From Aeropyrum pernix K1 (GTDB taxonomy: Archaea > Thermoproteota > Thermoprotei_A > Sulfolobales > Acidilobaceae), in the NCBI RefSeq assembly GCF_000011125.1, contig NC_000854.2, positions 180,001-212,000 on the forward strand: a DNA stretch of 32,000 nucleotides, written 5' to 3'. The position numbers were made by a program, and so were the translations under genes. The notes beneath the pieces were generated by a model. That model made no database searches and was not told the DNA's origin. It worked only from the letters and a program-made list of their open reading frames with translations. This document shows, piece by piece, positions 3,160 through 29,934 of this stretch (positions are counted from its first letter, which is position 1; each line of letters starts with the position of its first letter).

Positions 3160-3717
3160 CTACGGAGATGATTGATGATGCACTCCCGTCCCCGGTTTAA
3201 ACGCTAGAACGCTAGAGTTCTCTAAGCCAGGTTTTCTCAGGCATCTATGCACAACAACGCCTCCGACACCAGGAAGGCCGTAGACCACCGTCCAGTCGAT
3301 GCCGCAGTCGAGGGCCGCGAGGGCTATGAGGTCCTCTTCTCCTTCTACAAAAACCACATGCCTACCATACTCTTCCATTAGTTTGCAAATTGTCGTGTAG
3401 GCCTCCAGAGATAGTGAACCCGGGGGGCTTCGAACCCTGTGGACTCTGAAGCCCTGCGGCACAACCATGTCTCTCCAACTCTCCCTCCTTGTCTTTCCGT
3501 CTACCACAAGGATGAGGGGGCCTGTCCACGCGGTAGAGAGTGTAGCGATGCATGCTTGGGATACGTAGTCGCCTATGCAAGCAACACCGCTACAGGGAGT
3601 CTGGAGGAGCTGTCTTCTGAACCTATCGCCGCTATATACGGGCCCTGCCGCTGCCGCTAGTGCTTCCCTCATGTCCTCCGGCAGGCTTAAGAGCGGTATA
3701 GACAGGGCGACCGACAT
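3160..3717 (-). CDS. GTP-dependent dephospho-CoA kinase (archaeal DUF359 family)
   Basis: 185 aa with the DUF359 hallmarks IGDYV, VVDGKTRR, SPPGS and VEGEEDLIALAAL. It lies immediately downstream of spt4 and rpo7, the conserved archaeal neighbourhood for this family. Confidence 0.65.
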   Translation of the reverse strand: MSVALSIPLLSLPEDMREALAAAAGPVYSGDRFRRQLLQTPCSGVACIGDYVSQACIATLSTAWTGPLILVVDGKTRRESWRDMVVPQGFRVHRVRSPPGSLSLEAYTTICKLMEEYGRHVVFVEGEEDLIALAALDCGIDWTVVYGLPGVGGVVVHRCLRKPGLENSSVLAFKPGTGVHHQSSP

Positions 3718-3719
3718 GG

Positions 3720-3938
3720 CTATATCATGACCTTCTTACCTATGAGTATAGCCTTCCTGACAGGCTTTTCTATCCCGAGCTCCCTGGCTATAGCCGAGTT
3801 CTCAGGGTCAATTATGACTAGCATGCCGCTCCAGTTCTCAGTGAACTGGGTGGACCCACACTCGGGACAGACCTTAGATCCCCTCGGCACTAGCGTGCCA
3901 CAGTTCTTACATGCTACGAGCGAGGTCCTCCTAGCCAA
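3720..3938 (-). CDS. spt4: Transcription elongation factor Spt4 (RpoE'')
   Basis: 72 aa with the zinc ribbon CKNCGTLVPRGSKVCPECGS followed by the typical W.G...I.DPE.S.IA motif. It lies directly downstream of rpo7. Confidence 0.85.
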   Translation of the reverse strand: MARRTSLVACKNCGTLVPRGSKVCPECGSTQFTENWSGMLVIIDPENSAIARELGIEKPVRKAILIGKKVMI

Positions 3939-3944
3939 AGAGCG

Positions 3945-4505
3945 TCACCCCTTCTTAGCCTCGGGGGCCACCCACTCCTCCTTACCCAGATAGGGTTGTC
4001 TCATTGTCAATCCTATCCCTATTATCTGGGCGGTCCTACTTGGCCTCGACACATGAACCACCCTAGCCCTAACCACGTCCCCAACCCTAATCTCCCTCTT
4101 GCTGGCCAAGCCGACGAAGCCGGACCGGTCTGGGAGGAGCTCCACACCCTCATCCATGATCTGGTTCCTATGGACTTTCCCGTCGAGAGGGCCTAGGTTC
4201 ACAACTAGGCCGAAGTCGTCCGCCCTAGTCACAACACCCCTGACTATCTCGAGCTGCACTGGCTTGAAGGCTAGAACCCTATACCTGACTGGATAGTATA
4301 TGGAGGGGTCACCGCTCACTGGGGGGATAATGCCGTCTCCCACTATCTTGGCGTCAAGCACTGCGACTATAACACCCATCTCCTCGTCAATCCTCCCCTC
4401 CAGCCTCCTGAGATGCTCCAAAGCCGCCTTGTCGAGGTCCTCAGAGGAGTATATGCTAGCCGGCTCCATACCAATCCACTCCTCAACCACGTACTCGTAA
4501 TACAT
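3945..4505 (-). CDS. rpo7: RNA polymerase subunit Rpo7 (E'), S1-domain
   Basis: The ORF track starts at a TTG at 4526. The ATG at 4505 (MYYEYVVEEW...) fits the usual Rpo7 N-terminus better. A C-terminal S1-like fold is present (GLVVNLGPLDGKVH...VGDVVRARV). Confidence 0.85.
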   Translation of the reverse strand: MYYEYVVEEWIGMEPASIYSSEDLDKAALEHLRRLEGRIDEEMGVIVAVLDAKIVGDGIIPPVSGDPSIYYPVRYRVLAFKPVQLEIVRGVVTRADDFGLVVNLGPLDGKVHRNQIMDEGVELLPDRSGFVGLASKREIRVGDVVRARVVHVSRPSRTAQIIGIGLTMRQPYLGKEEWVAPEAKKG

Positions 4506-4573
4506 GCTGTAGACACCCTCCCCCAAAACCCAAGCTGGTTAAGAGAGTGTGGAAGGCGAGGCTAAATAGACTT

Positions 4574-4849
4574 TCAAACCTCCTCAACTCTGGAAGCGGC
4601 GCGTGCTTTAAGCTTTGAAATGATGCTTGAAAGAGGTATCTCCACGGGGCATACCTCATCGCACCTGCCACAGCCCAGGCATAGGTAGCTTATCTCTCCA
4701 GCTAGGTCCTCGCCCAGAGTTATAGCTGTCCATCCCATACCCATGGGCCCGCCGTACGCCGGGCCGCCCCACAGGTTTGCCGTGTGGAGGAAGACCGGGC
4801 ACTCGAAGCTGCACCTACCGCATCTTATACACCTCAGCTGCTCTACTAG
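4574..4849 (-). CDS. C-terminal 2x[4Fe-4S] part of the same LutB-like gene, in the -1 frame (no start codon of its own)
   Basis: My translation of the minus strand gives LVEQLRCIRCGRCSFECPVF...YLCLGCGRCDEVCPVEIPL...*, with the stop at 4574-4576. There are two CxxCxxCxxxCP motifs. The frame opens only 2 codons upstream of the junction, and no ATG/GTG/TTG start is present. This frame is not in the ORF track, which lists a different frame at 4483..4671. Confidence 0.75.
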   Translation of the reverse strand, partial: LVEQLRCIRCGRCSFECPVFLHTANLWGGPAYGGPMGMGWTAITLGEDLAGEISYLCLGCGRCDEVCPVEIPLSSIISKLKARAASRVEEV

Positions 4850-5787
4850 AAAGGGTGGCTAGCGGCCTTCATCCTCCCGTTGTCTAGTAGCACCACGTGG
4901 ACTTCCCTGGGGCCGTGGGCGCCGAGCACCTTTATCTGCTCTATGTCGCCCGTTGCTGAAGGGCCTGTGATGAGGGAGATATAGACTGGCATCCAGAAGC
5001 CTGCGAAGGCCGCCTGCACAAGCGCCACGTTAACGGCATCCCAGACTGAAGGCACTATCTTGTCTATTGGAACCAGCGCCACGTGGACGGGGGGGAGCGA
5101 GGAGACTAGACGTATATTGCCCTCATTCTCAACCAACACTATAGTACCTGTGTCCGCGGACATGGAGTTGGCCCCTGTTATCCCTACCCTAGCCTTGAAG
5201 AACTTCTCCCTGAGAAACTCCCTGACCGCCGCCACCATTCCCTCCACATCCCTTTCATCAACCTCGATACCCAGCTTCTCCCTTATTATCCTGGCTGCCC
5301 TCTCTCTCGTCATGTGCACCGCCGGCGCTACATTGTGCATCGGCTTCACACCCTCGAGCATGACAAGTAGCTGGCCCAGGTCAGTCTCCCAGACCTCGTT
5401 ACCCATAGACTCTAGATGCTCCCTCAGGCCGATCTCCTCCGCCGCCATACTCTTAGACATGACAACTATGGAACCGCTGCCCACGATCTTACCTACAATC
5501 TCCCTCGCATCCTCAGCCGTCTCCGCGTAATAAGGGTTAGCGCCGACTCTTCGGAGAGACTCCACCGCCCTCTCAACAAGCTCGCCTAGCCGCTTAACAC
5601 TCTCCCTCTTAACCTCCGTCACCTTCTTGGCCGCCTCAAGTATCTCTGGGTGGCTGGACAGTATCTCCGCCACCTTCCTCTGGTTGTTTAGACCGCTTTT
5701 CATTAACCCTTCCTGGAAATCCTTGTCCCCCAGGGCCCTGGAAACCTCCTTTATTACATCGTCTAGAGAACCGCCCACGAGCCACAC
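4846..5787 (-). CDS. LutB-like lactate-utilisation protein, N-terminal LUD domain part (0 frame)
   Basis: 313 aa, collinear with LutB/YkgF-type proteins (SKSM..EEIGL, ETDLG, GITGAN...ADTG..VLVENEGN.RL, VLLDNGR). It stops at TAG 4846-4848, just before the position where LutB proteins continue with CIRCG.C..CPV. Confidence 0.8.
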   Translation of the reverse strand: MWLVGGSLDDVIKEVSRALGDKDFQEGLMKSGLNNQRKVAEILSSHPEILEAAKKVTEVKRESVKRLGELVERAVESLRRVGANPYYAETAEDAREIVGKIVGSGSIVVMSKSMAAEEIGLREHLESMGNEVWETDLGQLLVMLEGVKPMHNVAPAVHMTRERAARIIREKLGIEVDERDVEGMVAAVREFLREKFFKARVGITGANSMSADTGTIVLVENEGNIRLVSSLPPVHVALVPIDKIVPSVWDAVNVALVQAAFAGFWMPVYISLITGPSATGDIEQIKVLGAHGPREVHVVLLDNGRMKAASHPF

Positions 5788-5842
5788 CCTATAAAGTATT
5801 AGGGGCGACCTATACTTTTACATTGGCATAGACGGGGCAGCC

Positions 5843-18656: not shown

Positions 18657-19091
18657 CTAGGGTACGACTTTTAGCCAAGGTATTCTCTTGAAGTCCTCAT
18701 CCAAGGTTGCTATTGTGTCTAGCTCGTGTTGTTTGCATGTTAATGCTATTAGTGCATCTGCTGGCATTAGGCCGTATTCTTCTATGAACTCGATTATTTC
18801 TCCCGGCTCAGCCATGAGCGGTAGTGTTGTGAAGAGCTTCAGTACAGGCCAGACTTCGCCCTTGATCATTTTTATGAGCCTCTCATCCCTCCTAGCTAGC
18901 AGCTTCCTTATTCTCCTAGCGCTTAATCCTGTTGCCAAGCGTAGGTAACCGTGTATAACCTCATCTATTACCAATGGATTAATGTAGCCGGTGATCTCAT
19001 GCCTCTCAACCTTCCTCATGAGATCTTTTGCTCTATCATCCTGGCCTGCAAGGAATGCTAGTATGATGCTAGTGTCCACGAATATCCTCAT
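18657..19091 (-). CDS. vapC: PIN-domain toxin VapC
   Basis: 144 aa with N-terminal MRIFVDTSIILAFL and C-terminal ...ADALIALTC...TLDEDF acidic residues typical of PIN. It overlaps the upstream antitoxin gene by 23 nt. Confidence 0.85.
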   Translation of the reverse strand: MRIFVDTSIILAFLAGQDDRAKDLMRKVERHEITGYINPLVIDEVIHGYLRLATGLSARRIRKLLARRDERLIKMIKGEVWPVLKLFTTLPLMAEPGEIIEFIEEYGLMPADALIALTCKQHELDTIATLDEDFKRIPWLKVVP

Positions 19092-19308
19092 CCTCTATCT
19101 CCTCTAGAACCTCTAGGAACTCTTTCTTATCGAGGTTTGGTCTGTGTTTTCTAGCGATGCCATAATATTTCTCGGCTATGGGCTCGCCCGGCTGTATTAT
19201 TACCTGAACCTCCTCGCCCTCCTGTAAATCCAGGGGCTCGAGAGGCTTTAGCACACCCTTCTCGTACTTTACCCGGATAACCTTCGACACGGTAGACACC
19301 ACTAGCAA
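19069..19308 (-). CDS. DUF104 (AF2212-like) antitoxin, VapB-type partner
   Basis: 79 aa. The KVIRVKYEKGVLKPLEPLDLQEGEEVQVII core is the DUF104 signature. It sits upstream of and overlaps the PIN gene. Confidence 0.8.
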   Translation of the reverse strand: MLVVSTVSKVIRVKYEKGVLKPLEPLDLQEGEEVQVIIQPGEPIAEKYYGIARKHRPNLDKKEFLEVLEEIEDEDIRGH

Positions 19309-19326
19309 TAGGATAGGATTGGGCCT

Positions 19327-20131
19327 CTAAGCTGTTACTTTATTTCTGAAGACAGTGTTGATTGGGCTTCCTTCAGGGTGTGGGGGTTCTAGGGTTCCTA
19401 GGTTGTGGTATGCTGCCTCCAACCTCCACCCCACGTTCTCAGCCATCTCTACTAGCTCTGTAAGAGTGTAGGTTCTTAGCGTATAGGTGAACTCGTCCAT
19501 GTAGAATAGGTCTTTGCCTAATTTCTTGTAGAAGACCCACCTGCTAGTGTGTATGGAGCGTATGGGGTCGAATACGGGATACCTGAGTGTGACGAACTCG
19601 GGGAATTCCCTCACGAATGGTTTAGGGCATCTACTACGGTGCTGGAGTATCTCCCGGCTCGTAGTGTTAGCTATCACCCACCAGTATACCGCCCGGCCTA
19701 ACTATATTCCTCACTCTCCTGAGTAATTCTAGGTCATAGTGGCGGCCTCTATAGCCTAGTAGAGTCGTCTAAGTTATGTATGCAGCATCAAATATTTGCC
19801 CGGTTAGCGTCTCATCTACTCTGTAGGCGTCTCCCACAATCGTGGTGAAGCCTTCTACACCCTCCTCCCTGGCCTTCTCCATCGCTCTAGCTATGAAGGG
19901 CTCCGAGAAGTCTAGTCATGTAACCCTGTAGCCTAGCTTTGCTAGTGGTATTGCCACCCTGCCGATTCCGCAGCCGGGCTCTAATATTGTGGAGCCTCGG
20001 GGGATGCCATGCTTCTCTAAGACTCTAGCCAGGTCCTCGGCTTCCCTCCTTCCCCTATCCCAGACACGCTCCATGATGGCCATGAATAGCTCGGCCTTCT
20101 CAACGAAAACCTCCCAAACCCAATCGTCCAT
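19327..20131 (-). pseudogene. Class I SAM-dependent methyltransferase, disrupted (at least 2 frameshifts plus 1 in-frame stop)
   Basis: N-terminal fragment 19916..20131 carries motif I (ILEPGCGIGRVAIPLAKLGYRVT). The middle part, in another frame (my translation), reads LDFSEPFIARAMEKAREEGVEGFTTIVGDAYRVD...AAYIT*...LELLRRVRNIVRPGGILV. The C-terminal fragment 19327..19677 is in a third frame. Confidence 0.75.
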
Positions 20132-20186
20132 AATAAAATCTCCCTCATGGGCTCTATCATGGCACTGCTAGGCTTTAACTTTATCA

Positions 20187-20291
20187 ATGTTGCATTATTA
20201 TCAGATTTACTGATCCAAGCCGATCTTCGTATCTGAGTGCATGTTGCATTCTATCATAAAGCAATGCAACGTGAGTATTTATAGCGTCGTT
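20187..20291 (+). repeat. Junction left arm, copy B
   Basis: ATGTTGCATTATTATCAG at 20187-20204 and ATGTTGCATTCTATCA at 20241-20256 are 54 nt apart. An inverted repeat GTTGCATT/AATGCAAC (20243-20250 / 20263-20270) and GTATTTATAGCG follow, directly abutting att copy B. Confidence 0.8.
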
Positions 20292-20336
20292 CTCCGGAGC
20301 CGGAGGTCCCGGGTTCAAATCCCGGCGGGCCCGCCA
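20292..20336 (+). repeat. att-like copy B: perfect 45-nt duplicate of the tRNA-Arg 3' half
   Basis: CTCCGGAGCCGGAGGTCCCGGGTTCAAATCCCGGCGGGCCCGCCA is identical to 18482-18526 (anticodon loop through CCA). Confidence 0.95.
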
Positions 20337-20446
20337 CAAACCACACAAAACTATCACAAAAACACCATAAAGAATATATCGATAACCGAGACCTCAGAAA
20401 GACGCCGATTATTTAGCTGGGCGGATTATCAGGAGTGATTCCATAA

Positions 20447-20655
20447 TTAATTTAGAATTAATATAGAAGGTTGGGGTATGACTTTTAGCCATGGTACTAT
20501 CTTGAAGTCTTCGTTGAATGTGAGTATTGTGTCTATTTCATAATGCTTGCAGGTTAGAGCTATTTGAGCGTCGTTAGGCAGGAGCTTATAGTTTAGGAGG
20601 GTTTTGGTGAATTCTTGATGCCTCTTAAACTCTATTAGTTTTGAAGGTTCATTAT
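20447..20655 (-). pseudogene. 5'-truncated vapC remnant (paralogue of 18657..19091)
   Basis: My translation is ...LLPNDAQIALTCKHYEIDTILTFNEDFKIVPWLKVIP, compared with LMPADALIALTCKQHELDTIATLDEDFKRIPWLKVVP* in the intact copy. The original stop is mutated and the N-terminal about 90 codons are missing. Confidence 0.7.
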
Positions 20656-20816
20656 TTCATAATGTTGAATGAATTGAACTCATATGAATCCTTGTATTGT
20701 GACTTTTTCGTTAAGAGTGCTTGAAGTATTATTTTATTTTTTAGATGATTCATAATGGAATGCTACTAGGTACATTAGAAGTTCCGCATACCCTTTCAGC
20801 TCCAAGATTATTTTAT

Positions 20817-21548
20817 CTATGGTCTCATCCTGTAGCCCCAGTAATTTTTGAATCCTCTCCTCACAGCTAGGTCTGTTCTGGGACCTAATGGGAATAGTGG
20901 GTGGACTTGCGCTATTGCTAGCTCCGCTGTCCAGGGCCCTACTCCTTTCAGCCTAGTTAGCTCTTTTACTATGCTGGAAAGCTCTTCCGCTTGTTCTATC
21001 TCTTCTACGCTGGGCAGTCTTCCCTCGTATTCGGTCATTGCTATGTTTTTGATGGCCTGGGCCTTCATCCTGGTGAGCCCTATTCTCCTTAGCCTGTCTA
21101 GTGATAAGCTGATTAATCTCTCAGGGTCGGGGAAGGAGTAGAAGACTTCTCTTCCGATGGACACGTGTTCTCCATACGATGTTATTAGGCGGGATTGTAT
21201 TCGTAATGCTGCTTTCAAGGCTATCCTCTGCTTAATGATTGAGTCTATGATGGCCTCGTAGAGTCTGAGCGAGCGCCCTGGCCTAAGCCCAGGATATTGT
21301 TTAGCTATTTCTAGGAGTTTAGGCCAGCCAGAGTTTCTCTAAGAACGTATTGTAATCAAAATCAGCTCTGACAGAATTAAGCGCAAGTCTAACAGCATCA
21401 GCAGGATCCTCCATGCTATTTGTATAAACTTCTATTCTGATCTCCGGTCTCCAGGGTTCACCGAGGAAATAGGATTTTACTGGCACCGTATCCCTATTGG
21501 GAAGCTTGTATAGCTTTCTACAACTCTTCTCGCCTGGCTCATATATCT
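20817..21548 (-). pseudogene. HhH-GPD DNA glycosylase (AlkA-like), apparently frameshifted
   Basis: Track ORF 20817..21218 contains LKGVGPWTAE plus the catalytic-Asp region (PRTDLAVRRGF). The same frame stays open upstream to about 21338 (WPKLLEIAKQYPGLRPGRSLRLYEAIIDSIIKQRI). The N-terminal domain (…EVYTNSMEDPADAVRLALNSVRADFDYNTFLEKLWLA*) is in another frame and ends at 21319-21321. Confidence 0.6.
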
Positions 21549-21691
21549 AGGGCATAGGAAGCCCAGGTATTGAAAACCTCTGGAGATGAAGAGTAAACCA
21601 GTAGGGAGGCTTAGGTTTATGAGTATATGAATAAAATGTGAGTGGGATTTCAACCACCTCCATGTACAAACCTATGGTATGGATCTTTGTG

Positions 21692-21928
21692 TTAAGGTAG
21701 GTACTTTTTGATTTTTGATGTTTTAAACGCCGTTATGATCATTATTCTATCCTGAAACTCCTTGTATATCGTAACTAGCACTTTATCGTTCAGTCTTTTT
21801 ATACATCGATACAAGCCCTCTAATTCTTCGATTTTGTCTGGTTCCCGTAAGCATTGTTCTACCTGTTCCCTTGTAATACCCCTCTGGCGGAGTCTCTCTA
21901 AGGCGTGTAGTGTGTAGAATATTTTCAA
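21692..21928 (-). CDS. DUF4258-family toxin-like protein
   Basis: 78 aa. The N-terminal HALERLRQRGITREQVEQCL is typical of DUF4258. There is a 4-nt overlap with the upstream DUF2283 gene. Confidence 0.7.
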   Translation of the reverse strand: MKIFYTLHALERLRQRGITREQVEQCLREPDKIEELEGLYRCIKRLNDKVLVTIYKEFQDRIMIITAFKTSKIKKYLP

Positions 21929-22152
21929 GCCTCAAGCACCATAGCCTCTGGACCCTCCGTCACTAGCCTGTGGAGATCGATCTTCTTCTTGGAAAATCCT
22001 AGTATCTCTATCCCTACAATCTCCCCATGCTCGTCATAATCTACAATAATTCCGGGTGCTATCTCTTCCGAGTCAACAATCCTACTCTCCTTAACCCTGA
22101 TATACAGGGCGTCACTTGAACGATCATACTTCAACCTTATTTCGCTAGGCAA
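21925..22152 (-). CDS. DUF2283-family antitoxin-like protein
   Basis: 75 aa with a TTG start. The pattern YDRSSDALYIRV...VDYDEHGEIVGIEIL is the DUF2283 signature. This is the usual partner of DUF4258. Confidence 0.7.
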   Translation of the reverse strand: MPSEIRLKYDRSSDALYIRVKESRIVDSEEIAPGIIVDYDEHGEIVGIEILGFSKKKIDLHRLVTEGPEAMVLEA

Positions 22153-22226
22153 TTCGAGCCTCCGTCTACTTTACTATTGCATTGATCACTCTTATTATTC
22201 TGTCATCACATCGATTAGGGTGCTTT

Positions 22227-22331
22227 ATGTTGCATTACTATCAGCAGTGATGAGTGGCAAAGAGAATCACTCACGAGTGCATGTTGCATCCTATCATGCA
22301 TTCATGCAACGTGGGTATTTATAGCGCGGGT
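22227..22331 (+). repeat. Junction left arm, copy C
   Basis: ATGTTGCATTACTATCAG at 22227-22244 and ATGTTGCATCCTATCA at 22281-22296 are again exactly 54 nt apart. GTTGCAT/ATGCAAC is an inverted repeat, followed by GTATTTATAGCG. The second motif lies 51 nt from the att start, as in copy B. Confidence 0.8.
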
Positions 22332-22380
22332 CTCTGGAGCCGGAGGTCCCGGGTCCCTAATCCCGCCGCGGGCCCGCCCC
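22332..22380 (+). repeat. att-like copy C (diverged tRNA-Arg 3' half)
   Basis: CTCTGGAGCCGGAGGTCCCGGGTCCCTAATCCCGCCGCGGGCCCGCCCC. The anticodon-arm and variable part are near-identical. The T-loop is replaced by TCCCTAATCCC, a variant shared with copies D and E. Confidence 0.8.
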
Positions 22381-22421
22381 AGAGGTTTTCGATATGTGAT
22401 AATCCTCCTTTCCTAATATTC

Positions 22422-22748
22422 TTACTTAACTTCTAGGGTTAGTTCAAGTCCTATTTCAAATATCTCATCTTTTAACTCTTCTTCGTAGGTAACGAATTCT
22501 ACCTTATTTTTCGCTTTATAGTCTGATACTCCCAAAATGGCTATCGCTGGAATGTGGAATTTATTTGCTAGGTGATAAACAATAGCCGTCTCCATATCTA
22601 TGCTTTCAGCATCCCTTTTAATGATATCATAAGTAAGCGAAAGCTTAGTTAGATGATTATCTGGTAGTATTACATTAAATCCATGTTTTTCGGCAATATT
22701 TAAAGCAGCCTTCTTCGAAGTATTATCTGCTATACCTTCAATGTCCAA
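22422..22748 (-). pseudogene. C-terminal fragment of a nucleoside phosphorylase-like (PNP_UDP_1) domain protein
   Basis: The block IDMETAIVYHLANKFHIPAIAILGVSDY matches the conserved DMEtAA....A....iP....rgvSD block. The frame is open without a start up to 22814. The N-terminal half of the fold is absent. The context is AT-rich. Confidence 0.5.
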
Positions 22749-23151
22749 GGCTTCTAGAGCGGCTCTAACAGGTATGGCTATAGTCTTATCTTCTGGGGGG
22801 AGGTTAGATGGCAGCTACCTAATTAAAGTTATATATCTTGGGTTCTTCACATATAAGAAGCTAACTAAGAATATCTAATGTCCTTGAAGTACCATAGGTA
22901 ACGGAATACCAGACTATCTTGTCATGGCGCCGGAATGCAAAACCTTGGCCTCTAATCTTTAAATACCTCTTTCTTCTATGGTAATGGCTGTATATGTCCC
23001 ATAGTCCTTCAAGCAATATAATATGAGGATTAGGCTTATCTCTGACTCTTAGATCTTGGGGGGAAATACTAGGCCTTGACAGCGTGAGGCTAATTATGTT
23101 TTTAGGGTGCCAGCATTATTCTCGCCGCGTACTTTACAGTTTCTAATTAGT

Positions 23152-23670
23152 TTAGGGATTTCTAGATTCACCCAGCTTTCTAAGGAATTCTTCAAGCGTT
23201 CTTCTAGATATCCAGAAGCCGCTCTCAATGAGCTTATCTATTATTGGCTTTGCCTTAGAGGTCAATCCCTTGTACTTGGCTAACGCTATTACACCCAGCG
23301 TACCCATTACCTGTAATCCTAGCTTCTTAGCTAGATTTCTAGCATCACGGTCGTCCATAAGTAGCAAGCCCGCATTGCGTTCAAAAGCTAGAACTATCGC
23401 TTCCGCCTCTCCCGTGTCCACAAACTCCTCGAAGAGAGACACTAGCCTCCTATCCACTACTTCCTCTACTCGTATAAAACCCGCTCTCACAACTTTCTCG
23501 CTGCCCGGCTTGCCTGCAACAGTAATTTCAGCCCAAACAGTTTCTGGAACGAGGACTTCACCGAAGAGCTTCTCCAGAAGGTCTAGACGACATACCCTGG
23601 CGAGCGCGATGATAATGCTTGAATTAGAGACTACGAGAAGCCTCTCTTCATCCTCATTACTTCTCTGCAA
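23152..23670 (-). CDS. PIN-like DUF3368-family toxin candidate
   Basis: 172 aa. VVSNSSIIIALARVCRLDLLEKLFGEVLVPETVWAEI plus GEAEAI and LLMDDRDAR is the DUF3368 pattern. It overlaps the UPF0175 gene by 14 nt. Confidence 0.75.
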   Translation of the reverse strand: MQRSNEDEERLLVVSNSSIIIALARVCRLDLLEKLFGEVLVPETVWAEITVAGKPGSEKVVRAGFIRVEEVVDRRLVSLFEEFVDTGEAEAIVLAFERNAGLLLMDDRDARNLAKKLGLQVMGTLGVIALAKYKGLTSKAKPIIDKLIESGFWISRRTLEEFLRKLGESRNP

Positions 23671-23926
23671 GCTTCTTGGCGACCTCCAAATCCTCCTTCA
23701 ACTCCTCCTCGCTATAGTGTAGCGGTATCCCTTCTCTGGCTAGTAGTTCTAGAAAATCCCATTTTGAGAGACCAGCAATCTTTCTAGCCTGGCCCAGGCT
23801 AGCTATACCCTTCTCGTAGAGCCTTAGTGCTAGCTCGATCCTAAGCCTCTTCTCAAGCTCGCCGGGAGGAACACGGAGGCCTTCAGGAACCTCGATAACA
23901 ATCCTTCTACTACCAATCCCAGCCAC
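23657..23926 (-). CDS. UPF0175-family antitoxin candidate
   Basis: 89 aa. LALRLYEKGIASLGQARKIAGLSKWDFLELLAREGIPLHYSEEELKEDLE is the UPF0175 HTH signature. This is the canonical partner of DUF3368. Confidence 0.8.
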   Translation of the reverse strand: MAGIGSRRIVIEVPEGLRVPPGELEKRLRIELALRLYEKGIASLGQARKIAGLSKWDFLELLAREGIPLHYSEEELKEDLEVAKKLAEK

Positions 23927-24079
23927 TTGAGTCCCCCACTAACACTTATACTGAGGAAATTATTAGCCTTAACAGCCCTAAGCTCGGCAGTCTCATGAAT
24001 TGCCTTACAGGACATAAATGTGTTGTAAATCGTCCCAGAATACCATCAAACCTTGGAACATCTCCTTATAAGTGCCAGC

Positions 24080-24126
24080 TTCCGGAGCCGCGGGGTCCCG
24101 GATCCCTAATCCCAGCGGGCCCGCCA
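24080..24126 (+). repeat. att-like copy D (diverged tRNA-Arg 3' half)
   Basis: TTCCGGAGCCGCGGGGTCCCGGATCCCTAATCCCAGCGGGCCCGCCA, followed by a right arm (CAAAACTAT...GAATGTATCGATTACCGAGACC). The left arm here is only weakly conserved. Confidence 0.7.
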
Positions 24127-24279
24127 CAAAACTATTTATATCATCATTAACCTACACTTAGAATGTATCGATTACCGAGACCATAAGATGAAGCCGACCA
24201 TCTCTCAAGTACGAAAATTCCATATGCTTCGATGAGTTATGTGTCTAAGCAATGCAATTTATTATTAATTTATATTGAA

Positions 24280-24756
24280 TTAGTTTACGGGAACTCTCAA
24301 GTCGGAAGGTGTGTATAGAATTACACCGTAGGCTTTAAGGCAGTTCTCAATGTAATCGTTCTTGTTCCAGGTTAAAAGGATCACATTCTTATACTTTTCG
24401 GATAGGTGTAGTGCTAGTGCTGCAAAGTCAGCGTCAGCGAGATCTTTAACGCATTCTCCGGCTTTCTCCATATAAGCGTTATAAGTCCCTTTCTCGACCA
24501 TGTTTACGTTTAATAATAGGATTCTGATAGCAGCTCGCAATTCTTCTACTGAGACCTTCTTTCTTTTGGCTAGTTCTTCCAGGTGCTCGTCTATTTCGTG
24601 TAGTGCCTTCTCTGATGTGAAGGCTTTTATGCCGAGGACGTCTATGAGATATATTACAACCTGTCTAGTATAGCTTCCATGTCTAAGCACGGATGCTAGG
24701 ATGATGTTTGTATCAAGAACTAGCGCCTCGCCATCCTTCTCCTCATCCTTATCCAT
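24280..24756 (-). CDS. PIN-domain toxin
   Basis: 158 aa with LVLDTNIILASVL and DADFAALALHL acidic motifs. It overlaps the upstream small gene by 37 nt. Confidence 0.75.
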   Translation of the reverse strand: MDKDEEKDGEALVLDTNIILASVLRHGSYTRQVVIYLIDVLGIKAFTSEKALHEIDEHLEELAKRKKVSVEELRAAIRILLLNVNMVEKGTYNAYMEKAGECVKDLADADFAALALHLSEKYKNVILLTWNKNDYIENCLKAYGVILYTPSDLRVPVN

Positions 24757-24920
24757 TCTAGGTCATCCTCTTCAAGGCCGTGCTTTGACAGGATTTCCTC
24801 TAGGAGAGCTAGCTTAACGGCTGCCCTGGCTATTGCGTCTTCCCCCAAACCCCTTTTGCGGGCCTCCTCAACAATCCACCTCGGGAGGCGAACGCGTACT
24901 ACGGCATCCTCAGTACTCAA
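24720..24920 (-). CDS. Putative antitoxin of the adjacent PIN gene
   Basis: 66 aa with a TTG start. The pattern ...LPRWIVEEARKRGLGEDAIARAAVKLALLEEILSK... resembles archaeal VapB-type partners. Assignment is mainly positional. Confidence 0.5.
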   Translation of the reverse strand: MSTEDAVVRVRLPRWIVEEARKRGLGEDAIARAAVKLALLEEILSKHGLEEDDLEWIRMRRRMARR

Positions 24921-24998
24921 ACCTAAACCACCAACTGAGGAAAAGCAAATTCCAAGATTAATAGTTTCTCGGCTGCATAGTTACCCTAAAACCATAGT

Positions 24999-25100
24999 AT
25001 GTTACATTATTATCAAGATTGAAAATCACGTCAGAACATCAACCATAATGCATGTCGCATTCCTCCATGAACCGTGCAACCAGAGTATTTAAGTGTCAGC
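24999..25100 (+). repeat. Junction left arm, copy E (diverged)
   Basis: ATGTTACATTATTATCAA at 24999-25016 and ATGTCGCATTCCTCCA at 25052-25067 are 53 nt apart. GTGCAAC and GTATTTAAGTG follow, abutting att copy E. Confidence 0.65.
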
Positions 25101-25148
25101 CTCAGGAGCCGGAGGTCCAGGGTCCCTAATCCCGCCGCGGGCCCGCCA
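25101..25148 (+). repeat. att-like copy E (diverged tRNA-Arg 3' half)
   Basis: CTCAGGAGCCGGAGGTCCAGGGTCCCTAATCCCGCCGCGGGCCCGCCA. The right arm retains AAAATATATTGATAGCCGAGGAC. Confidence 0.75.
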
Positions 25149-25300
25149 CGACATTAGCAAAACTGCCAAAAACGTCTAGAAAATATATTGATAGCCGAGG
25201 ACGCAAAACAAGACCGAGCTCGTCTCGAATGTGATAGTATGGAGTGATCTAACATATACTAATCTATAACTCTTCGAAAGGTCTTGAATACGTTTCTTAC

Positions 25301-25759
25301 CTATTTACAGCCCATATATTTCATTAGCTCCTCTAATTCATTATTACTTAGGATATAGAATGATTTGATTCCTGCTTTTCTAGCATTCTGCGCCTGTACT
25401 TTATCGCTTGTCGCCACAGGCAGATTTAGGGTCTTTGCCAGTCCAAGATAATAAGAGTCTGCCCCCCTCGACCCAGTTGCTAGCGCTATTTCAACGGCTA
25501 TCCTGAAATATGCTTCATCGCCAACTAGGATTACCTTACTGCTAAAAGCATCAAGTACTCGCTCTACGATAGAGGGTGCCAGGTATCTCACCAGGACGCC
25601 AGCAACCTCTACTAGGAACAGGCGTGGTGCGTAAACGCTTATACTGTGGCGTTCAATGCATTCCACCACTTTCTCAGCTATCTGAGCCCGGGCTTTATCT
25701 TTAGCGGCAAACAAGTCTGCAGCAAGGGATGCATCTACTACTAAACCGCCCTTATGCAA
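25301..25759 (-). CDS. vapC: PIN-domain toxin VapC
   Basis: 152 aa with LVVDASLAADLF, ...ADSYYLGLA... and ...VATSD. There is an 8-nt overlap with the DUF104 gene. Confidence 0.8.
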   Translation of the reverse strand: MHKGGLVVDASLAADLFAAKDKARAQIAEKVVECIERHSISVYAPRLFLVEVAGVLVRYLAPSIVERVLDAFSSKVILVGDEAYFRIAVEIALATGSRGADSYYLGLAKTLNLPVATSDKVQAQNARKAGIKSFYILSNNELEELMKYMGCK

Positions 25760-25979
25760 GCCTACTCCTCTCTCTAGACAAAATCTCGCTTGGCTCCTCC
25801 CTCTCTTGAGACAACCTACGCCTTATCCTTCTGGCTAACTCTGCGAGATTCTCCCTTATAATAATATCAACCTCTTCACCATCCTCAAGATTAACGGGCT
25901 CAAGAGGCTTCAGCACGCCCTTCTCATATCTAACCCTAATAACTTTAGACATCCCTATCTCCACCCTCCTTAACTCCAT
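25752..25979 (-). CDS. DUF104 (AF2212-like) antitoxin
   Basis: 75 aa. The KVIRVRYEKGVLKPLEPVNLEDGEEVDIII core is present. A TATA-like ATATTTA lies about 28 nt upstream of the ATG, inside the left-arm motif of copy F. Confidence 0.85.
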   Translation of the reverse strand: MELRRVEIGMSKVIRVRYEKGVLKPLEPVNLEDGEEVDIIIRENLAELARRIRRRLSQEREEPSEILSRERSRLA

Positions 25980-26007
25980 ACAGAGACTCTAAGCCTTTAC
26001 CCTAAAT

Positions 26008-26113
26008 ATGTCGCGTTATTATCCAATATGATACGAAGCCCGGATTATCACATTAGCTGGTGTGTTCCATTCTACAATGCACATATGCAACACAGTTATT
26101 TATATAGCGCCTT
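26008..26113 (+). repeat. Junction left arm, copy F (diverged)
   Basis: ATGTCGCGTTATTATCCA at 26008-26025 and GTGTTCCATTCTACA at 26062-26076 are followed by ATGCAAC and GTTATTTATATAGCG, abutting att copy F. Confidence 0.6.
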
Positions 26114-26161
26114 CTCTGGAGCCGCGGGCCCCTGGGGTTCAAACCCGCGGCGGGCCCGCGA
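26114..26161 (+). repeat. att-like copy F (diverged tRNA-Arg 3' half)
   Basis: CTCTGGAGCCGCGGGCCCCTGGGGTTCAAACCCGCGGCGGGCCCGCGA retains a TTCAAA-type T-loop. Confidence 0.7.
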
Positions 26162-26318
26162 CAAAACTATCTATACCATCATTAACCTATGCTTAATACT
26201 CAACCACCTCTTCCCTGGTATACACACCTGTCCCTCCAAAAGCCAGATCGAACCTCCTCCGGAGGAGCTTCTCTATCGACTGGATTATCTCAACATGGTT
26301 CTCACCCTTAAACGCCAT
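26114..26318 (-). pseudogene. Decayed N-terminal fragment of an SSV-type (tRNA-targeting) integrase reading through att copy F
   Basis: My translation from the ATG at 26318 is MAFKGENHVEIIQSIEKLLRRRFDLAFGGTGVYTREEVVEY*A*VNDGIDSFVAGPPRV*TPGARGS. The VAGPP...PG..GS part is the antisense reading of the tRNA half, in the same frame as the 41-codon ORF. Three in-frame stops are present. Confidence 0.45.
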
Positions 26319-26594
26319 AATCTCAGCAGCGGAATGGTCAGGGTTGCCTTGGAGGGGGGATTGTCAATAGTGGGTATAGACATGGAGGGGGATCTCAGGT
26401 AGGGTGAGAGGGTGTGGTAATAGTGTGAATCCCGTTCCTGCCAGGTATCCAACTGAGGCGCATCCGGCTGCTTCGAGGAGCTGTCTCCCGAGGCTCCTCT
26501 CCCTGTACGTCTTCTTTATGGGGCCATCTGCCTTTTCCACGCCTTCCGGATCTTATCGTGAGGCGACGAAAAGTAAAGACCTAGATAAAGTAAT

Positions 26595-26861
26595 TTGGTA
26601 GAAGAGGTGAGAATAGTGGCAAAGGGGGTAGGAGGCAAAGCCGAGACTACCGCAGAAGAAGCGGCAATAGAGGTCCTGGAGGCGCAAGTAAAGAAAGAAT
26701 CAAAACTACTCTGGGAGATAGCAGGAACAGCAGTATGCTCTGTTGCGTTATTCCCAGCAGGAACAGTCCCAGCCCACCTCATAACGCCCACGCTTGATGT
26801 CATCATCGGGGATAGCACGGTAACCGTTGGATGGGTGACCATAGGGGGGACGGGAGGATGA
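26595..26861 (+). CDS. Hypothetical 88-aa protein, first gene of an orphan pair
   Basis: TTG start. There is a charged N-terminal helix, a hydrophobic stretch (LLWEIAGTAVCSVALFPAG) and a Gly/Thr/Val-rich tail. The stop TGA overlaps the ATG at 26858 of the next gene (ATGA). Confidence 0.4.
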   Translation: MVEEVRIVAKGVGGKAETTAEEAAIEVLEAQVKKESKLLWEIAGTAVCSVALFPAGTVPAHLITPTLDVIIGDSTVTVGWVTIGGTGG

Positions 26862-28840
26862 GCAGGGAGCTGATAGGCCTCGGGGCAGGCATACTCATCC
26901 GGCTCCTACTCAAAAACCTCAAGAAGAAGGGGCAGCACATAGAGGAAAGGGCGCCGCCCCAGCTGACCCGGGAGCAGATAGACCAGTACATAGTAGACAC
27001 TACAATAGACGAGGCGTACGAACAGCTACAGGCAGAATACGACAGGGCATACCGGGAGCTCCTGAAGAGAGAGAAGGAAGCGGAAGACCCCCACATCAAA
27101 AAACTCATACAAAACATAAAGGAATACCACGAACTATTCAGGAAAGATAACGAGATGAGGCCCCCCTGGATGCTCACAGCAATCCTGCTAAACGAAGCCC
27201 TAAAACACGGAGTAAAAGACAGGGACAAGATATACCAGTACATCCTAAAAGCAAGCTGGGAGTACGCAAAGGAAATAGCACAAGCCCTCCCAGCCAAGAA
27301 GTACCAGGGCAGATACACCCGGGCGTACGCAGACCAAATGAGAAATCCCTTTATATCAATCATAGAAATCGAGGCGATGATAAGAGAAGCAAACAGGGAT
27401 GATCCGAAGTGGAAAAAATATACACAGATGTTTGATCTGTATTGGAACAAGATTCCGGACGACATCTATAATAGGGCCGACTCGCAGCATCATGAAGTAA
27501 CAAAATACCTGCAACTCCTGGAAGAGGCCCTTCGTGAGGCAGAAAGGGAATCGGGGGTAGAGCCCTTCTGGCACAAGACCCCCGAGGAAATCCTCGGCAT
27601 AGGACCGGGAGAGGGTCCCGCGCCGGCGGGAGAGCCGATACTCGCCTACCCGGACAGGTACCCGACACTAGCCCAGAAGGTCCTGCTCAAGACCCTCGTC
27701 CTGGGAGAGTTCCTGAGGGAGGGAGGGGGCGTCCACAGGGACCTCTACAGGGCCCTGAGGAACCTCCTCGACTCGCCGCTAACCACGAACCACTGGTACC
27801 CCTTCCTCGCCGAGTGGTTCGAGAACCTGGAGAAGGGCAGGCACGTGAGCCCCCTAACCCAGCTCCTCCAGAAGCTGCCGGTAAACCCCGAGCTCAAGCA
27901 GAGGGCATACAGGTACCTCGCACAGATAGAGCAGGGGAAGAGCATCAGCGAGATACCCGAAGAGGAGAGGAAAGCCTTCAGGGAGGTCATCGAGCGATTA
28001 AAAAATGAGATATGGAGGAACCCGGACAGATTCGTACCCATCGTCGAGGAGCTCACCTACGCCACGGGCATGAACATCAAGGACGCCGCCAAGACCCTTA
28101 TAGGGGTGCTGGACGACTTCGCGAAGATATACTCGGGTGAGAAGAGCCCGAGGCAGGCGGGCATAGAGCGTGACGCCACCCAGGTCCTCCACGTCATCAA
28201 GAACCTCCGGGACAGGGGCAACTACGTAGACCCCTACCACGTCACCGAGACCCTGATAAACATCATAGAGCAGCACATCCAAGACCCGCTCCTGAGGGAG
28301 GCCTACAAGAGGATCCTGGAACACTACCAGAGGACACACGGAGAAATACCGAGGGATCTACGCTACCTTGAAAGGGTTGTAGAGGAGGAGAGGGAGCTGG
28401 AGGAGAAGCTTAAAGGGTTAGAACGCGAAAACAGAAAGCTCTCCGAGGGAGATATCCGGAGGACAGCCATGCTTTACAGGACCCTCATGCTCCTCACACC
28501 ACACCCAAGCCTGGAAGACATCAAACGGTTCTACTCGAGGCTCGCAGAGAGACTGAAAGTCAAGGTGGGAGAGGAGTCATTCCTGCCCGTCCACGGGCCT
28601 GTAGCGGAGGATGTGGCGTCCAGCTTCGCAGCCATAAGGAGGGCAAAGCCGGAGGAGAGGGAGCGGGTGGTGAGGAGGGAGATTTCCGGCTTCGAGCCCC
28701 TCTTCCACGCGGCACCCCACATAAAGGAGGGTGTCATGTCCGTGCTTGCCGCCACACGGAGCAATATAGTGTCGGGGGAGAAGCACGAAGAGTTCATAAG
28801 ACACCTGGAGAGAACGCAGGTGAGGAGACCGTTAGAATAG
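26858..28840 (+). CDS. Large orphan protein (about 660 aa), N-terminal membrane anchor, predicted all-alpha
   Basis: A 2-kb uninterrupted ORF (the track starts it at 26831; the ATG at 26858 gives the ATGA overlap). It has the N-terminal hydrophobic segment LIGLGAGILIRLLL, a Pro/Gly linker GIGPGEGPAPAGEP and the coiled-coil-like EEERELEEKLKGLERENRKL. I recognise no family or catalytic motif. Confidence 0.6.
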   Translation: MSRELIGLGAGILIRLLLKNLKKKGQHIEERAPPQLTREQIDQYIVDTTIDEAYEQLQAEYDRAYRELLKREKEAEDPHIKKLIQNIKEYHELFRKDNEMRPPWMLTAILLNEALKHGVKDRDKIYQYILKASWEYAKEIAQALPAKKYQGRYTRAYADQMRNPFISIIEIEAMIREANRDDPKWKKYTQMFDLYWNKIPDDIYNRADSQHHEVTKYLQLLEEALREAERESGVEPFWHKTPEEILGIGPGEGPAPAGEPILAYPDRYPTLAQKVLLKTLVLGEFLREGGGVHRDLYRALRNLLDSPLTTNHWYPFLAEWFENLEKGRHVSPLTQLLQKLPVNPELKQRAYRYLAQIEQGKSISEIPEEERKAFREVIERLKNEIWRNPDRFVPIVEELTYATGMNIKDAAKTLIGVLDDFAKIYSGEKSPRQAGIERDATQVLHVIKNLRDRGNYVDPYHVTETLINIIEQHIQDPLLREAYKRILEHYQRTHGEIPRDLRYLERVVEEERELEEKLKGLERENRKLSEGDIRRTAMLYRTLMLLTPHPSLEDIKRFYSRLAERLKVKVGEESFLPVHGPVAEDVASSFAAIRRAKPEERERVVRREISGFEPLFHAAPHIKEGVMSVLAATRSNIVSGEKHEEFIRHLERTQVRRPLE

Positions 28841-28984
28841 GGTTATGCCTCGTCGCTCCCGGTGCCCGTGTCGCCCATCCAAACCACCTCTCTAACATTT
28901 TGCACAGGGAAGTATAAAAAGTGGCAGTGGAGAGGGTGAAACGTAAACACCCAGGAATAAAATGTTAGCTTGGAGAAGACTGTG

Positions 28985-29140
28985 GTAAAACCATCGGTCG
29001 GCAAGGAGACTCTCCAGCTGATCAAACGGGTTATCCTGTAGGAGGCGGGGAAGCTGGGAGTAGGAGTAGAGATGATAGTATTGCTTGGGAGTAGGGCCTG
29101 GGGCAAGGCCGGACTCGGACTGTATATCAGCAATAATATT
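28985..29140 (+). pseudogene. Minimal nucleotidyltransferase (MNT-type antitoxin) remnant
   Basis: My translation is KETLQLIKRVIL*EAGKLGVGVEMIVLLGSRAWGKA, then after a frame shift RPDSDCISAIIF. This is the GSxxxG...SD.D pattern of MNT proteins, interrupted by one in-frame TAG and one frameshift. Confidence 0.4.
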
Positions 29141-29157
29141 TCCGAGAACAACGCTAT

Positions 29158-29262
29158 TCAGGTCGACGATAGCTTTTCAAAGGTTTGTTCTGCCGGGCCT
29201 CTTTTCTCGGTTTCGAGGAGTATGCTGAGGATTATGCTCGTGTCGATGTAGGCGGTTTTCAT
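29158..29262 (-). pseudogene. Truncated PIN (vapC) remnant
   Basis: The 34-codon ORF MKTAYIDTSIILSILLETEKRGPAEQTFEKLSST* has the PIN N-terminal signature (compare MRIFVDTSIILAFL). It sits directly downstream of the decayed DUF104 gene. Confidence 0.55.
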
Positions 29263-29346
29263 TGTGTGTGTGCGCCTCTTCCTCAAGCTCTAATAGCTCT
29301 TTGATTGAGGATTTCCCGAGGGCTCCCCTATACTTCCTACGGACTT

Positions 29347-29484
29347 TCATAAGGTCGCGTTTACCGTTACCACTACCTCCTCGCCCTCCTCAAGATCCAA
29401 AGGCTCGAGAGGCTTTAGCACACCCTTCTCATATTTAACCCTAATAGCTTTAGATATCCCTATCTCCACCCTCCCTAACTGCAT
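29347..29484 (-). pseudogene. Frameshifted DUF104 antitoxin remnant
   Basis: MQLGRVEIGISKAIRVKYEKGVLKPLEPLDLEEGEEVVVTVNATL*. The expected C-terminal part (…KYRGALGKSSIKELLELEEEAH…) continues in another frame. The upstream region is near-identical to that of 25752..25979. Confidence 0.7.
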
Positions 29485-29510
29485 ACAGAGACTCTAAGCC
29501 ATTATCCTAG

Positions 29511-29590
29511 ATGTTGCGCTATTATCGGCTGGGAGAAGCCGGGAGTGGATGTTGCATCCTATCATGCACTAATGCAACATTAATTTATTT
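29511..29590 (+). repeat. Junction left arm, copy G (with internal deletion)
   Basis: ATGTTGCGCTATTATCGG at 29511-29528 and ATGTTGCATCCTATCA at 29549-29564 are 38 nt apart. A perfect inverted repeat GTTGCAT/ATGCAAC is present. Confidence 0.7.
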
Positions 29591-29622
29591 GTCCCGGCCC
29601 CGGAATCCCGAGGAGCCCGCCA
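29591..29622 (+). repeat. att-like copy G (strongly decayed, internally deleted)
   Basis: GTCCCGGCCCCGGAATCCCGAGGAGCCCGCCA is followed by a well conserved right arm (…ACCATAGGGAATATATCGGTAGCCGAGATCTCAG…). Confidence 0.55.
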
Positions 29623-29934
29623 CAACACAGTCTAAAACATTACCAAATACCATAGGGAATATATCGGTAGCCGAGATCTCAGGGTGCCGGCCCTTCGGCC
29701 AGGTGGGTTTCAGGGATGATTAAATGTTGCGTTTCTTCGCCACTTGTCCAACCGGTATACGTTGAATGGATCTACGGAGCCGTTGGAACCCAGCAGTTTT
29801 TCATCATAGCTTCATAAAAGGAGTTTATTTTAAATTTTCCTATGCTTAGGCGGCATTGTGGTTTTATTATGTGCGCGAGTCTGGTGTAATCATCAGTGTG
29901 GTACATGGGACATGCGTTTCTTCGAAGTTGTTTT

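Follow-up and report, generated by a model that had tools for sequence, protein, structure and literature searches.

How does Aeropyrum pernix K1 express a LutB-like gene whose two domains are encoded in different reading frames? The gene lies on the minus strand of a 32,000-nucleotide stretch of the chromosome (NC_000854.2, positions 180,001 to 212,000), referred to here as the window, and all coordinates given below are window coordinates. Its upstream part encodes a LUD domain and ends at a stop codon, and the ferredoxin domain expected next follows in the −1 frame. The initial annotation, made from the letters of the window, had offered three explanations for this arrangement: programmed −1 frameshifting, a recent single-nucleotide deletion that left a pseudogene, or a homopolymer sequencing error. 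Comparison with related genes makes programmed or compensatory −1 ribosomal frameshifting at the heptamer C CCU UUC the probable explanation. The only serious rival is a fourth possibility absent from those three options, namely a split gene with two separately initiated products. The elements on which the argument depends are the following.

4846..5778, minus strand: 0-frame open reading frame (ORF) with the LUD domain, 310 amino acids from GTG 5778, ending ...SHPF followed by TAG; identical to database ORF P0001.
4859..4861, minus strand: TAG in the −1 frame, read directly from the sequence, which shuts the −1 frame on the upstream side.
4849..4855, minus strand: slippery heptamer C CCT TTC (X XXY YYZ) in 0-frame phase, the proposed −1 slip site.
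4846..4848, minus strand: 0-frame stop TAG directly 3' of the heptamer, a possible 'shifty stop' enhancer.
4574..4849, minus strand: −1-frame segment of 91 amino acids (Fer4_8) with two CxxCxxCxxxCP 4Fe-4S motifs; its stop is at 4574-4576.
4835..4837, minus strand: Leu codon CTG within the conserved EQ-L-RC, the sole position at which a separate ferredoxin ORF could conceivably start.

The layout of the junction is as the initial annotation had described it. The LUD ORF terminates in ...SHPF-TAG at 4846-4848 (its last codons are ...GCT AGC CAC CCT TTC TAG), the ferredoxin domain carries on in the −1 frame, where no ATG, GTG or TTG stands upstream of the first Cys of the A. pernix segment, and the C CCU UUC heptamer is located at the junction, at 4849-4855 and in X XXY YYZ phase. 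Translation of the −1 frame from 4849 gives LVEQLRCIRCGRCSFECPVF, with CLGCGRCDEVCPV and CLGCGRCDEVCPVEIPL following later, and continues to the stop at 4574-4576. Because of the −1-frame TAG at 4859-4861, the change of frame is confined to the 10 nt CCACCCTTTC (4849-4858). The TG of the Leu codon at 4835-4837 forms, together with the A that follows, a second 0-frame stop (TGA), and it is from this same codon that the 87-residue database ORF P0125 is called. The non-shifted LUD product has a computed mass of ~33.7 kDa. The joined product would consist of 401 amino acids with a computed mass of ~43.5 kDa, and a trans-frame tryptic peptide AASHPFLVEQLR, of monoisotopic mass 1366.74 Da, is predicted from it. 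An alternative, longer reading of the LUD ORF starts at GTG 5787 and would give a joined product of 404 amino acids. A GGTG motif is found 6 nt upstream of GTG 5778, and a TTTATA box at 5790-5795 (minus strand, from a reading of the sequence at 5776-5795); these two elements suggest that the start is at 5778 rather than 5787.

When the two parts are joined, the protein has the architecture of LutB/LldF, in which a LUD domain is followed by a two-[4Fe-4S] domain containing eight Cys. Pfam places LUD_dom at residues 71-301 and Fer4_8 at residues 318-384, with no Pfam family matched past residue 384, beyond the Fer4 domain. The LutB/LldF family TIGR00273 matches the joined protein as a single uninterrupted stretch (residues 35-397, E 6e-106), and the alignment with single-ORF homologues is gapless, with H-P-F-L-x-E-Q-L-R-C set against H/D-P-L-L-x-E-Q-L-R-C. 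The contiguous LutB-type sequence that the initial annotation expected from a −1 slip is thus recovered. The TIGR00273 score of 354.9 is under the curated cut-off of 444.8, the match covers model positions 19-372 of 432 and leaves positions 373-432 unmatched, and neither LutA nor LutC is adjacent; on these grounds the protein is LutB-like, and not a TIGR00273 equivalog. The joined protein, when modelled with AlphaFold, gives a mean predicted local distance difference test (pLDDT) score of 94 and a predicted template modelling score of 0.92. At the junction the pLDDT reaches 97-98, and residues 311-316 form a confident helix. A search of solved structures returned no LutB structure, only distant LUD and ferredoxin matches. 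In the databases, the two pieces are named as separate, unrelated small proteins.

The downstream segment behaves in evolution as a coding sequence in the −1 frame. Read in this frame, the ferredoxin parts of A. pernix and Aeropyrum camini differ by 28.3 synonymous and 5.7 non-synonymous changes (omega 0.04), and the LUD part of the same pair gives an equal omega. All 21 pairs of seven lineages have a ratio of non-synonymous to synonymous change (pN/pS) of 0.05-0.46, with similar values for the two halves. Synonymous sites are near saturation, with pS of 0.43-0.58 when A. pernix is compared with A. camini and 0.55-0.84 for every other combination of lineages. Conservation in the −1 frame also extends to the residues that separate the slip site from the first Cys, L311 and L315 being invariant and Q314 nearly invariant across 45 homologues. 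No long conserved ORF was seen on the antisense strand opposite the downstream segment. Taken together, these patterns indicate that the −1 frame is translated and that both halves are under purifying selection.

Another option of the initial annotation was that a recent deletion had turned the gene into a pseudogene. In that case the ferredoxin part would be a decaying remnant, or the LUD-only protein alone would be functional. Such a loss would agree with the database annotation of a LUD-only protein, and with the position of the gene in the shifted lineages, where the LutA-like partner is not adjacent. It is nevertheless highly improbable, as the −1 segment has remained open and free of indels across lineages, has retained all eight cluster Cys and shows an omega of 0.04-0.3 despite the near-saturated synonymous sites. 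A recent pseudogene is refuted because the downstream domain is selected as strongly as the upstream domain.

The third suggestion, an error of sequencing or assembly in the CCCTTT run, has nothing in its favour except that short homopolymers are present. Six independent Illumina (short-read) assemblies of A. pernix (L015-L020) have an identical junction, and it recurs in the complete genome of A. camini (L014), in several assemblies of an Aeropyrum sp. with 75% protein-level identity in the LUD part (L001, L024-L029), and in the more distant lineages L012/L013, L030, L032, L034 and L035/L036. The carriers include metagenome-assembled genomes and metagenome contigs from different projects. An error is refuted because the shift recurs in so many independent assemblies, and it can be set aside as scarcely credible. 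The comparison of orthologues that the initial annotation had proposed therefore finds both the shift and the exact heptamer kept in A. pernix, A. camini and six further diverged lineages.

Two further candidates do not enter this comparison. Locus L031, which has a CCG-domain neighbour, had appeared to be another split LutB-like gene (2367-2377), and was rejected because the break is a run of N, that is, a scaffold gap; its readable junction is P-L-R (CCT TTG AGG), without the heptamer. Locus L033 was left out of the junction comparison, since its contig begins inside the ferredoxin part.

The shift is ancient and goes back to a single origin. A protein profile search with the shifted LUD ORFs against 5.8 billion proteins placed 13 clusters at the top, all of them LUD-only proteins of 308-316 amino acids whose C-termini are ...PF, PF extended by 3-4 residues, or PFPF extended by 4; a score gap separates these from the full-length single-ORF proteins of ~400 amino acids. 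Neighbour-joining trees recover the shifted clade as monophyletic, with bootstrap support of 99/100 for whole proteins (119 sequences) and 100/100 for the LUD part alone (12 shifted and 48 in-frame sequences), and no in-frame revertants are nested within it. A first metagenome DNA scan for sequence close to the junction gave 0 matches. As a control, metagenomes were searched with a DNA pattern matching the HVV(L/F)(L/F)DNGR motif upstream of the junction; the junction is not part of this pattern, and 99 LutB-like genes were obtained. Between DNGR and the first Cys motif 98 of the 99 are in frame, and CCCTTTC was found in none of them. The in-frame relatives have H/D-P-L/V-L at this position, for example CAC CCA CTA TTA, which is consistent with the loss of 1 nt from a CCN TTR CTA ancestor.

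The sole out-of-frame control gene is L078 (Ga0182022_1213342), a contig of 1405 nt that has two separate 1-nt gaps in comparison with the near-identical L051 and L076. It contains no slippery sequence, and its frame break is probably a low-coverage assembly error.

Within the shifted clade the heptamer is the most constant feature of the junction. The sequence NNC CCT TTC is identical in all eight lineages for which DNA is available. There are 14 invariant Pro columns in the gene comparison, and the slip-site column alone is encoded by a single codon (CCT, seven times). This is not the preferred Pro codon, CCC being commoner elsewhere. Across five lineages codon conservation within the gene is highest in the slip-site stretch, with 9 of 14 columns conserved against 3.5 expected when amino-acid identity is controlled (P ~5e-4). 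In one subclade the CCTTTC unit is duplicated in tandem and in phase, as ggC CCT TTC CCT TTC, on three independent contigs (L032 at ~676-694, L035 at 3424-3436, and L036), and cluster P0135, which ends ...GPFPF SRSS, has the same duplication. The doubled heptamer provides two overlapping slip sites that would give an identical product, and the 6-nt duplication keeps the phase. The heptamer by itself is not rare, with 11 copies of CCCTTTC in the window against 6.2 expected; it is the position, phase and conservation of this copy that are beyond chance. The pattern indicates that the heptamer is under selection. Both this conservation of heptamer and shift in eight lineages and the selection on the two halves support the programmed −1 frameshifting that the initial annotation had listed first.

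Correction in RNA, where polymerase slippage on the CCC/TTT run or editing would insert a base in some transcripts, would yield an identical protein and leave both halves just as conserved, and the DNA data do not formally oppose this. Known transcriptional slippage sites, however, are much longer homopolymers (reviewed in PMC5009743), and the runs here are just 3 nt. In addition, the conserved pattern is the phase-specific X XXY YYZ and the duplication preserves that phase, which matters to the ribosome and not to the polymerase. RNA-level correction is accordingly judged very unlikely, and we infer that it is the ribosome that restores the frame.

Ribosomal frameshifting would have arisen and would operate as follows. 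In the ancestor of the Aeropyrum-related clade a 1-nt deletion would have changed a sequence of roughly CAC CCT TTR CTA to CAC CCT TTC TA. A fraction of ribosomes would then slip one base back on C CCU UUC and complete the 401-residue protein. In this step the P-site tRNA-Pro would re-pair from CCU to CCC and the A-site tRNA-Phe from UUC to UUU; a tRNA-Pro with G34 would gain a Watson-Crick pair in moving from CCU to CCC. Where a stop follows the heptamer, slippage of tRNA-Phe by itself in the P site is an alternative. After the slip, translation would resume at CUA... to give L-V-E-Q-L-R-C..., and non-slipping ribosomes would release the 310-residue LUD-only protein. The stop directly after the heptamer, to which the initial annotation drew attention, occurs in A. 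pernix, A. camini, L012 and L034; as a conserved feature of the clade it does not stand, being absent in four of the eight lineages (L001, L030, L032 and L035).

Several observations weigh against ribosomal frameshifting as the explanation. The 43.5-kDa joined protein is a prediction from sequence. The heptamer C_CC.U_UU.C counts as a high-level −1 heptamer in E. coli (PMC4066793), a ranking derived from that organism and not from archaeal ribosomes, and a bare heptamer usually has low efficiency. No conserved stimulatory RNA structure was found 3' of the site, either with RNAalifold on four lineages or in single-sequence folds, and the region is predicted to be essentially unfolded at 90 °C. 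The synonymous conservation that extends 3' of the slip site is lost in L034, which uses different Arg and Gly codons. A CCG-domain LutA-like partner is not adjacent to the gene in any shifted lineage. Lastly, the Leu codon near the start of the −1 segment is CTG or TTG in seven of the eight lineages, and in L001, L030, L032 and L035 it overlaps the 0-frame stop as YTGA, in the style of coupled genes. Some independent initiation may thus occur in lineages with YTG, those with TTG included.

The search for stimulators extended to several candidates. The downstream stem-loop or pseudoknot for which the initial annotation had suggested folding the region is not supported: with ViennaRNA at 37, 75 and 90 °C the folding energy is no better than that of shuffled sequences, and the one weak hairpin, located 7 nt downstream, lacks covariation and is not retained by L030 and L034. 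An upstream Shine-Dalgarno-like stimulator was rejected, as it is not conserved across lineages (the junction sequences were inspected by eye, without a formal scan). Downstream synonymous conservation was also dropped as a conserved signal because of the difference in L034, and the heptamer alone is universal.

In the split-gene alternative the two halves became two subunits after the deletion: the LUD protein terminates and a ferredoxin subunit starts separately at the Leu YUG by re-initiation or coupling, giving M-R-C-I-R-C.... This Leu codon is TTG in L001, L012, L032 and L035, the codon with which A. pernix genes most often start (PMC5911459). Separate ORFs of 84-95 amino acids have been annotated by gene callers and by NCBI, and all seven YTG lineages keep YTG at a position where in-frame relatives use many different Leu codons. 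The codon is CTG, on the other hand, in A. pernix itself, A. camini and L030, and L034 has CTC, with no ATG, GTG, TTG or CTG before the first Cys. GGTG has been reported as a ribosome-binding motif of A. pernix (PMC2848648), and neither GGTG nor a Shine-Dalgarno motif is found upstream of the candidate start. A downstream GAGGTG sequence was considered as a GGTG-like motif and rejected, since it precedes only an out-of-frame ATG-CGG-TAG and is absent in L034. The retention of YTG-A is equally explicable as the supply of a 0-frame TGA. Separate initiation also leaves unexplained why the in-phase heptamer is strictly conserved at synonymous positions, why it has been duplicated in phase, and why L311-x-E-Q, which precedes the supposed start, is conserved. 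For these reasons a split gene is considered unlikely, and ribosomal frameshifting is preferred.

The genomic setting of the gene differs between the shifted clade and its relatives. In the nearest in-frame archaeal relatives (L021-L023) a CCG-domain (LutA-like) gene is located directly upstream, with FAD-oxidase and ferredoxin genes adjacent. In the shifted clade the upstream neighbours are pyrD, or L24e and S28e, and rpoE'-spt4-DUF359 lies downstream; neither LutA nor LutC is adjacent to the gene, and tblastn with the CCG protein of the relatives found no homologue in the window or at the shifted loci. An information-processing cluster can be recognized, in the order L24e, S28e, LutB-like gene, rpoE', spt4, DUF359, S24e and S27e (L030 1142-4114; L034 1814-5673; L035 1905-5169; window 3160-5787). 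Relocation of the gene and the frameshift mark the same clade, the frameshift having arisen together with the move out of a lactate/glycolate-oxidation cluster and into that of the ribosomal-protein, rpoE' and spt4 genes.

The clade contains no in-frame revertant at all, which suggests that the arrangement has been kept for a reason and is not merely tolerated. One tentative proposal, which we regard as possible but doubtful, is that ribosomal frameshifting serves here as a maintained expression device, independent of RNA structure and working at 90-95 °C, that would fix the ratio of the LUD-only protein to the full LUD-ferredoxin enzyme. This ratio might be constant or might depend on conditions, which could include the modification state or supply of tRNA-Phe or tRNA-Pro. 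Such a role would fit the clade-wide retention without reversion, the slip-site duplication as a form of tuning, and the appearance of the shift together with the gene relocation.

The remainder of the window contains features unrelated to the LutB-like gene. A low-GC stretch at 18449-29650 (41-50%, compared with 55-58% elsewhere) begins at a tRNA-Arg(CCG) gene (18449-18526) and contains small ORFs only. At least six degenerate direct copies of the 3' half of the tRNA are spaced at 1-2 kb within it (18482, 20292, 22332, 24081, 25101, 26114 and perhaps 29611); several of the copies are preceded by the conserved block GAGTGCATGTTGCAT..., and the first two match the SSV1 integration site at 97.7%. 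The stretch looks like a pile-up of integrated-element remnants. A second low-GC patch at 10000-12800 (43-46%) adjoins tRNA-Ser(GCT) at 12691-12778 and may be another integration site. One RNA gene completes the list.

15795-16021, minus strand: archaeal signal recognition particle RNA (Rfam RF01857, model positions 68-306 of 317).

The closest known parallel to the LutB-like gene is fucA1, encoding the alpha-L-fucosidase of Saccharolobus (Sulfolobus) solfataricus, also a crenarchaeal cellular gene in which ORFs in the 0 and −1 frames together equal single-ORF homologues (PMC1616953; PMC8211752). Both genes have an X XXY YYZ heptamer in a short overlap, both need a −1 slip for the full-length product, and in each case slippage of two tRNAs or of the P-site tRNA alone has been considered. 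In fucA1 the heptamer reads A AAA AAT and is accompanied by rare codons on its flanks and by a putative stem-loop, whereas that of the LutB-like gene is C CCU UUC with no structure supported. Interruption of fucA1 is limited to two S. solfataricus strains, other Sulfolobales having a full-length gene (PMC8211752), whereas the LutB-like interruption extends through a whole clade (at least 13 clusters) with no full-length member. Frameshifting in fucA1 has been proven experimentally, at ~10% in vitro, whereas that of the LutB-like gene is deduced from sequence.

A second parallel is provided by the Mg-chelatase genes of Methanocaldococcus/Methanococcus and some bacteria, which have a conserved A_AAA_AAR −1 site (PMC3711429; PMC5009743). 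Here also the overlap of two ORFs in a cellular gene is conserved, purifying selection acts on the shift site, and the case is a comparative-genomics prediction in archaea. They differ in gene family, in a poly-A heptamer that also permits transcriptional slippage, in belonging to the Euryarchaeota, and in having been tested only in E. coli cassettes. The 'corrective' or 'compensatory' class of frameshifting has been defined (PMC5009743), with chloroplast atpB as an example (PMC8254509). The LutB-like gene resembles this class in that translation would compensate for a genomic 1-nt indel by means of a slippery sequence formed at the indel or next to it, and in that the non-shifted product is possibly useless. 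Members of the class are mostly found in organelles, recent mutants or single lineages, whereas the LutB-like case has near-saturating synonymous divergence, no reversion and a duplicated slip site. This persistence, together with the duplication of the site, points to a maintained and possibly regulatory use. The kinship of the protein itself is with LutB/LldF of the LutABC L-lactate utilisation system, with which it shares the LUD domain and the two-[4Fe-4S] ferredoxin domain.

A 2021 review named fucA1 as the only cellular −1 programmed frameshift shown in Archaea, and described candidates as scarce and prediction tools as untested on Archaea (PMC8211752). In the searchable literature no earlier description of the LutB-like frameshift was found. 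The annotation can now be corrected, since one 401-residue enzyme is probably made where databases list two proteins. If true, the LutB-like gene would provide a rare example of a conserved cellular frameshift in Archaea. The locus is a conserved, chromosomal and non-mobile candidate in the cultivable hyperthermophiles A. pernix and A. camini, and its natural variants differ in whether a stop adjoins the heptamer, in whether the heptamer is single or doubled, and in whether a downstream start is possible. It would thereby make testable how archaeal ribosomes frameshift, and whether RNA structure is dispensable at temperatures that melt it.

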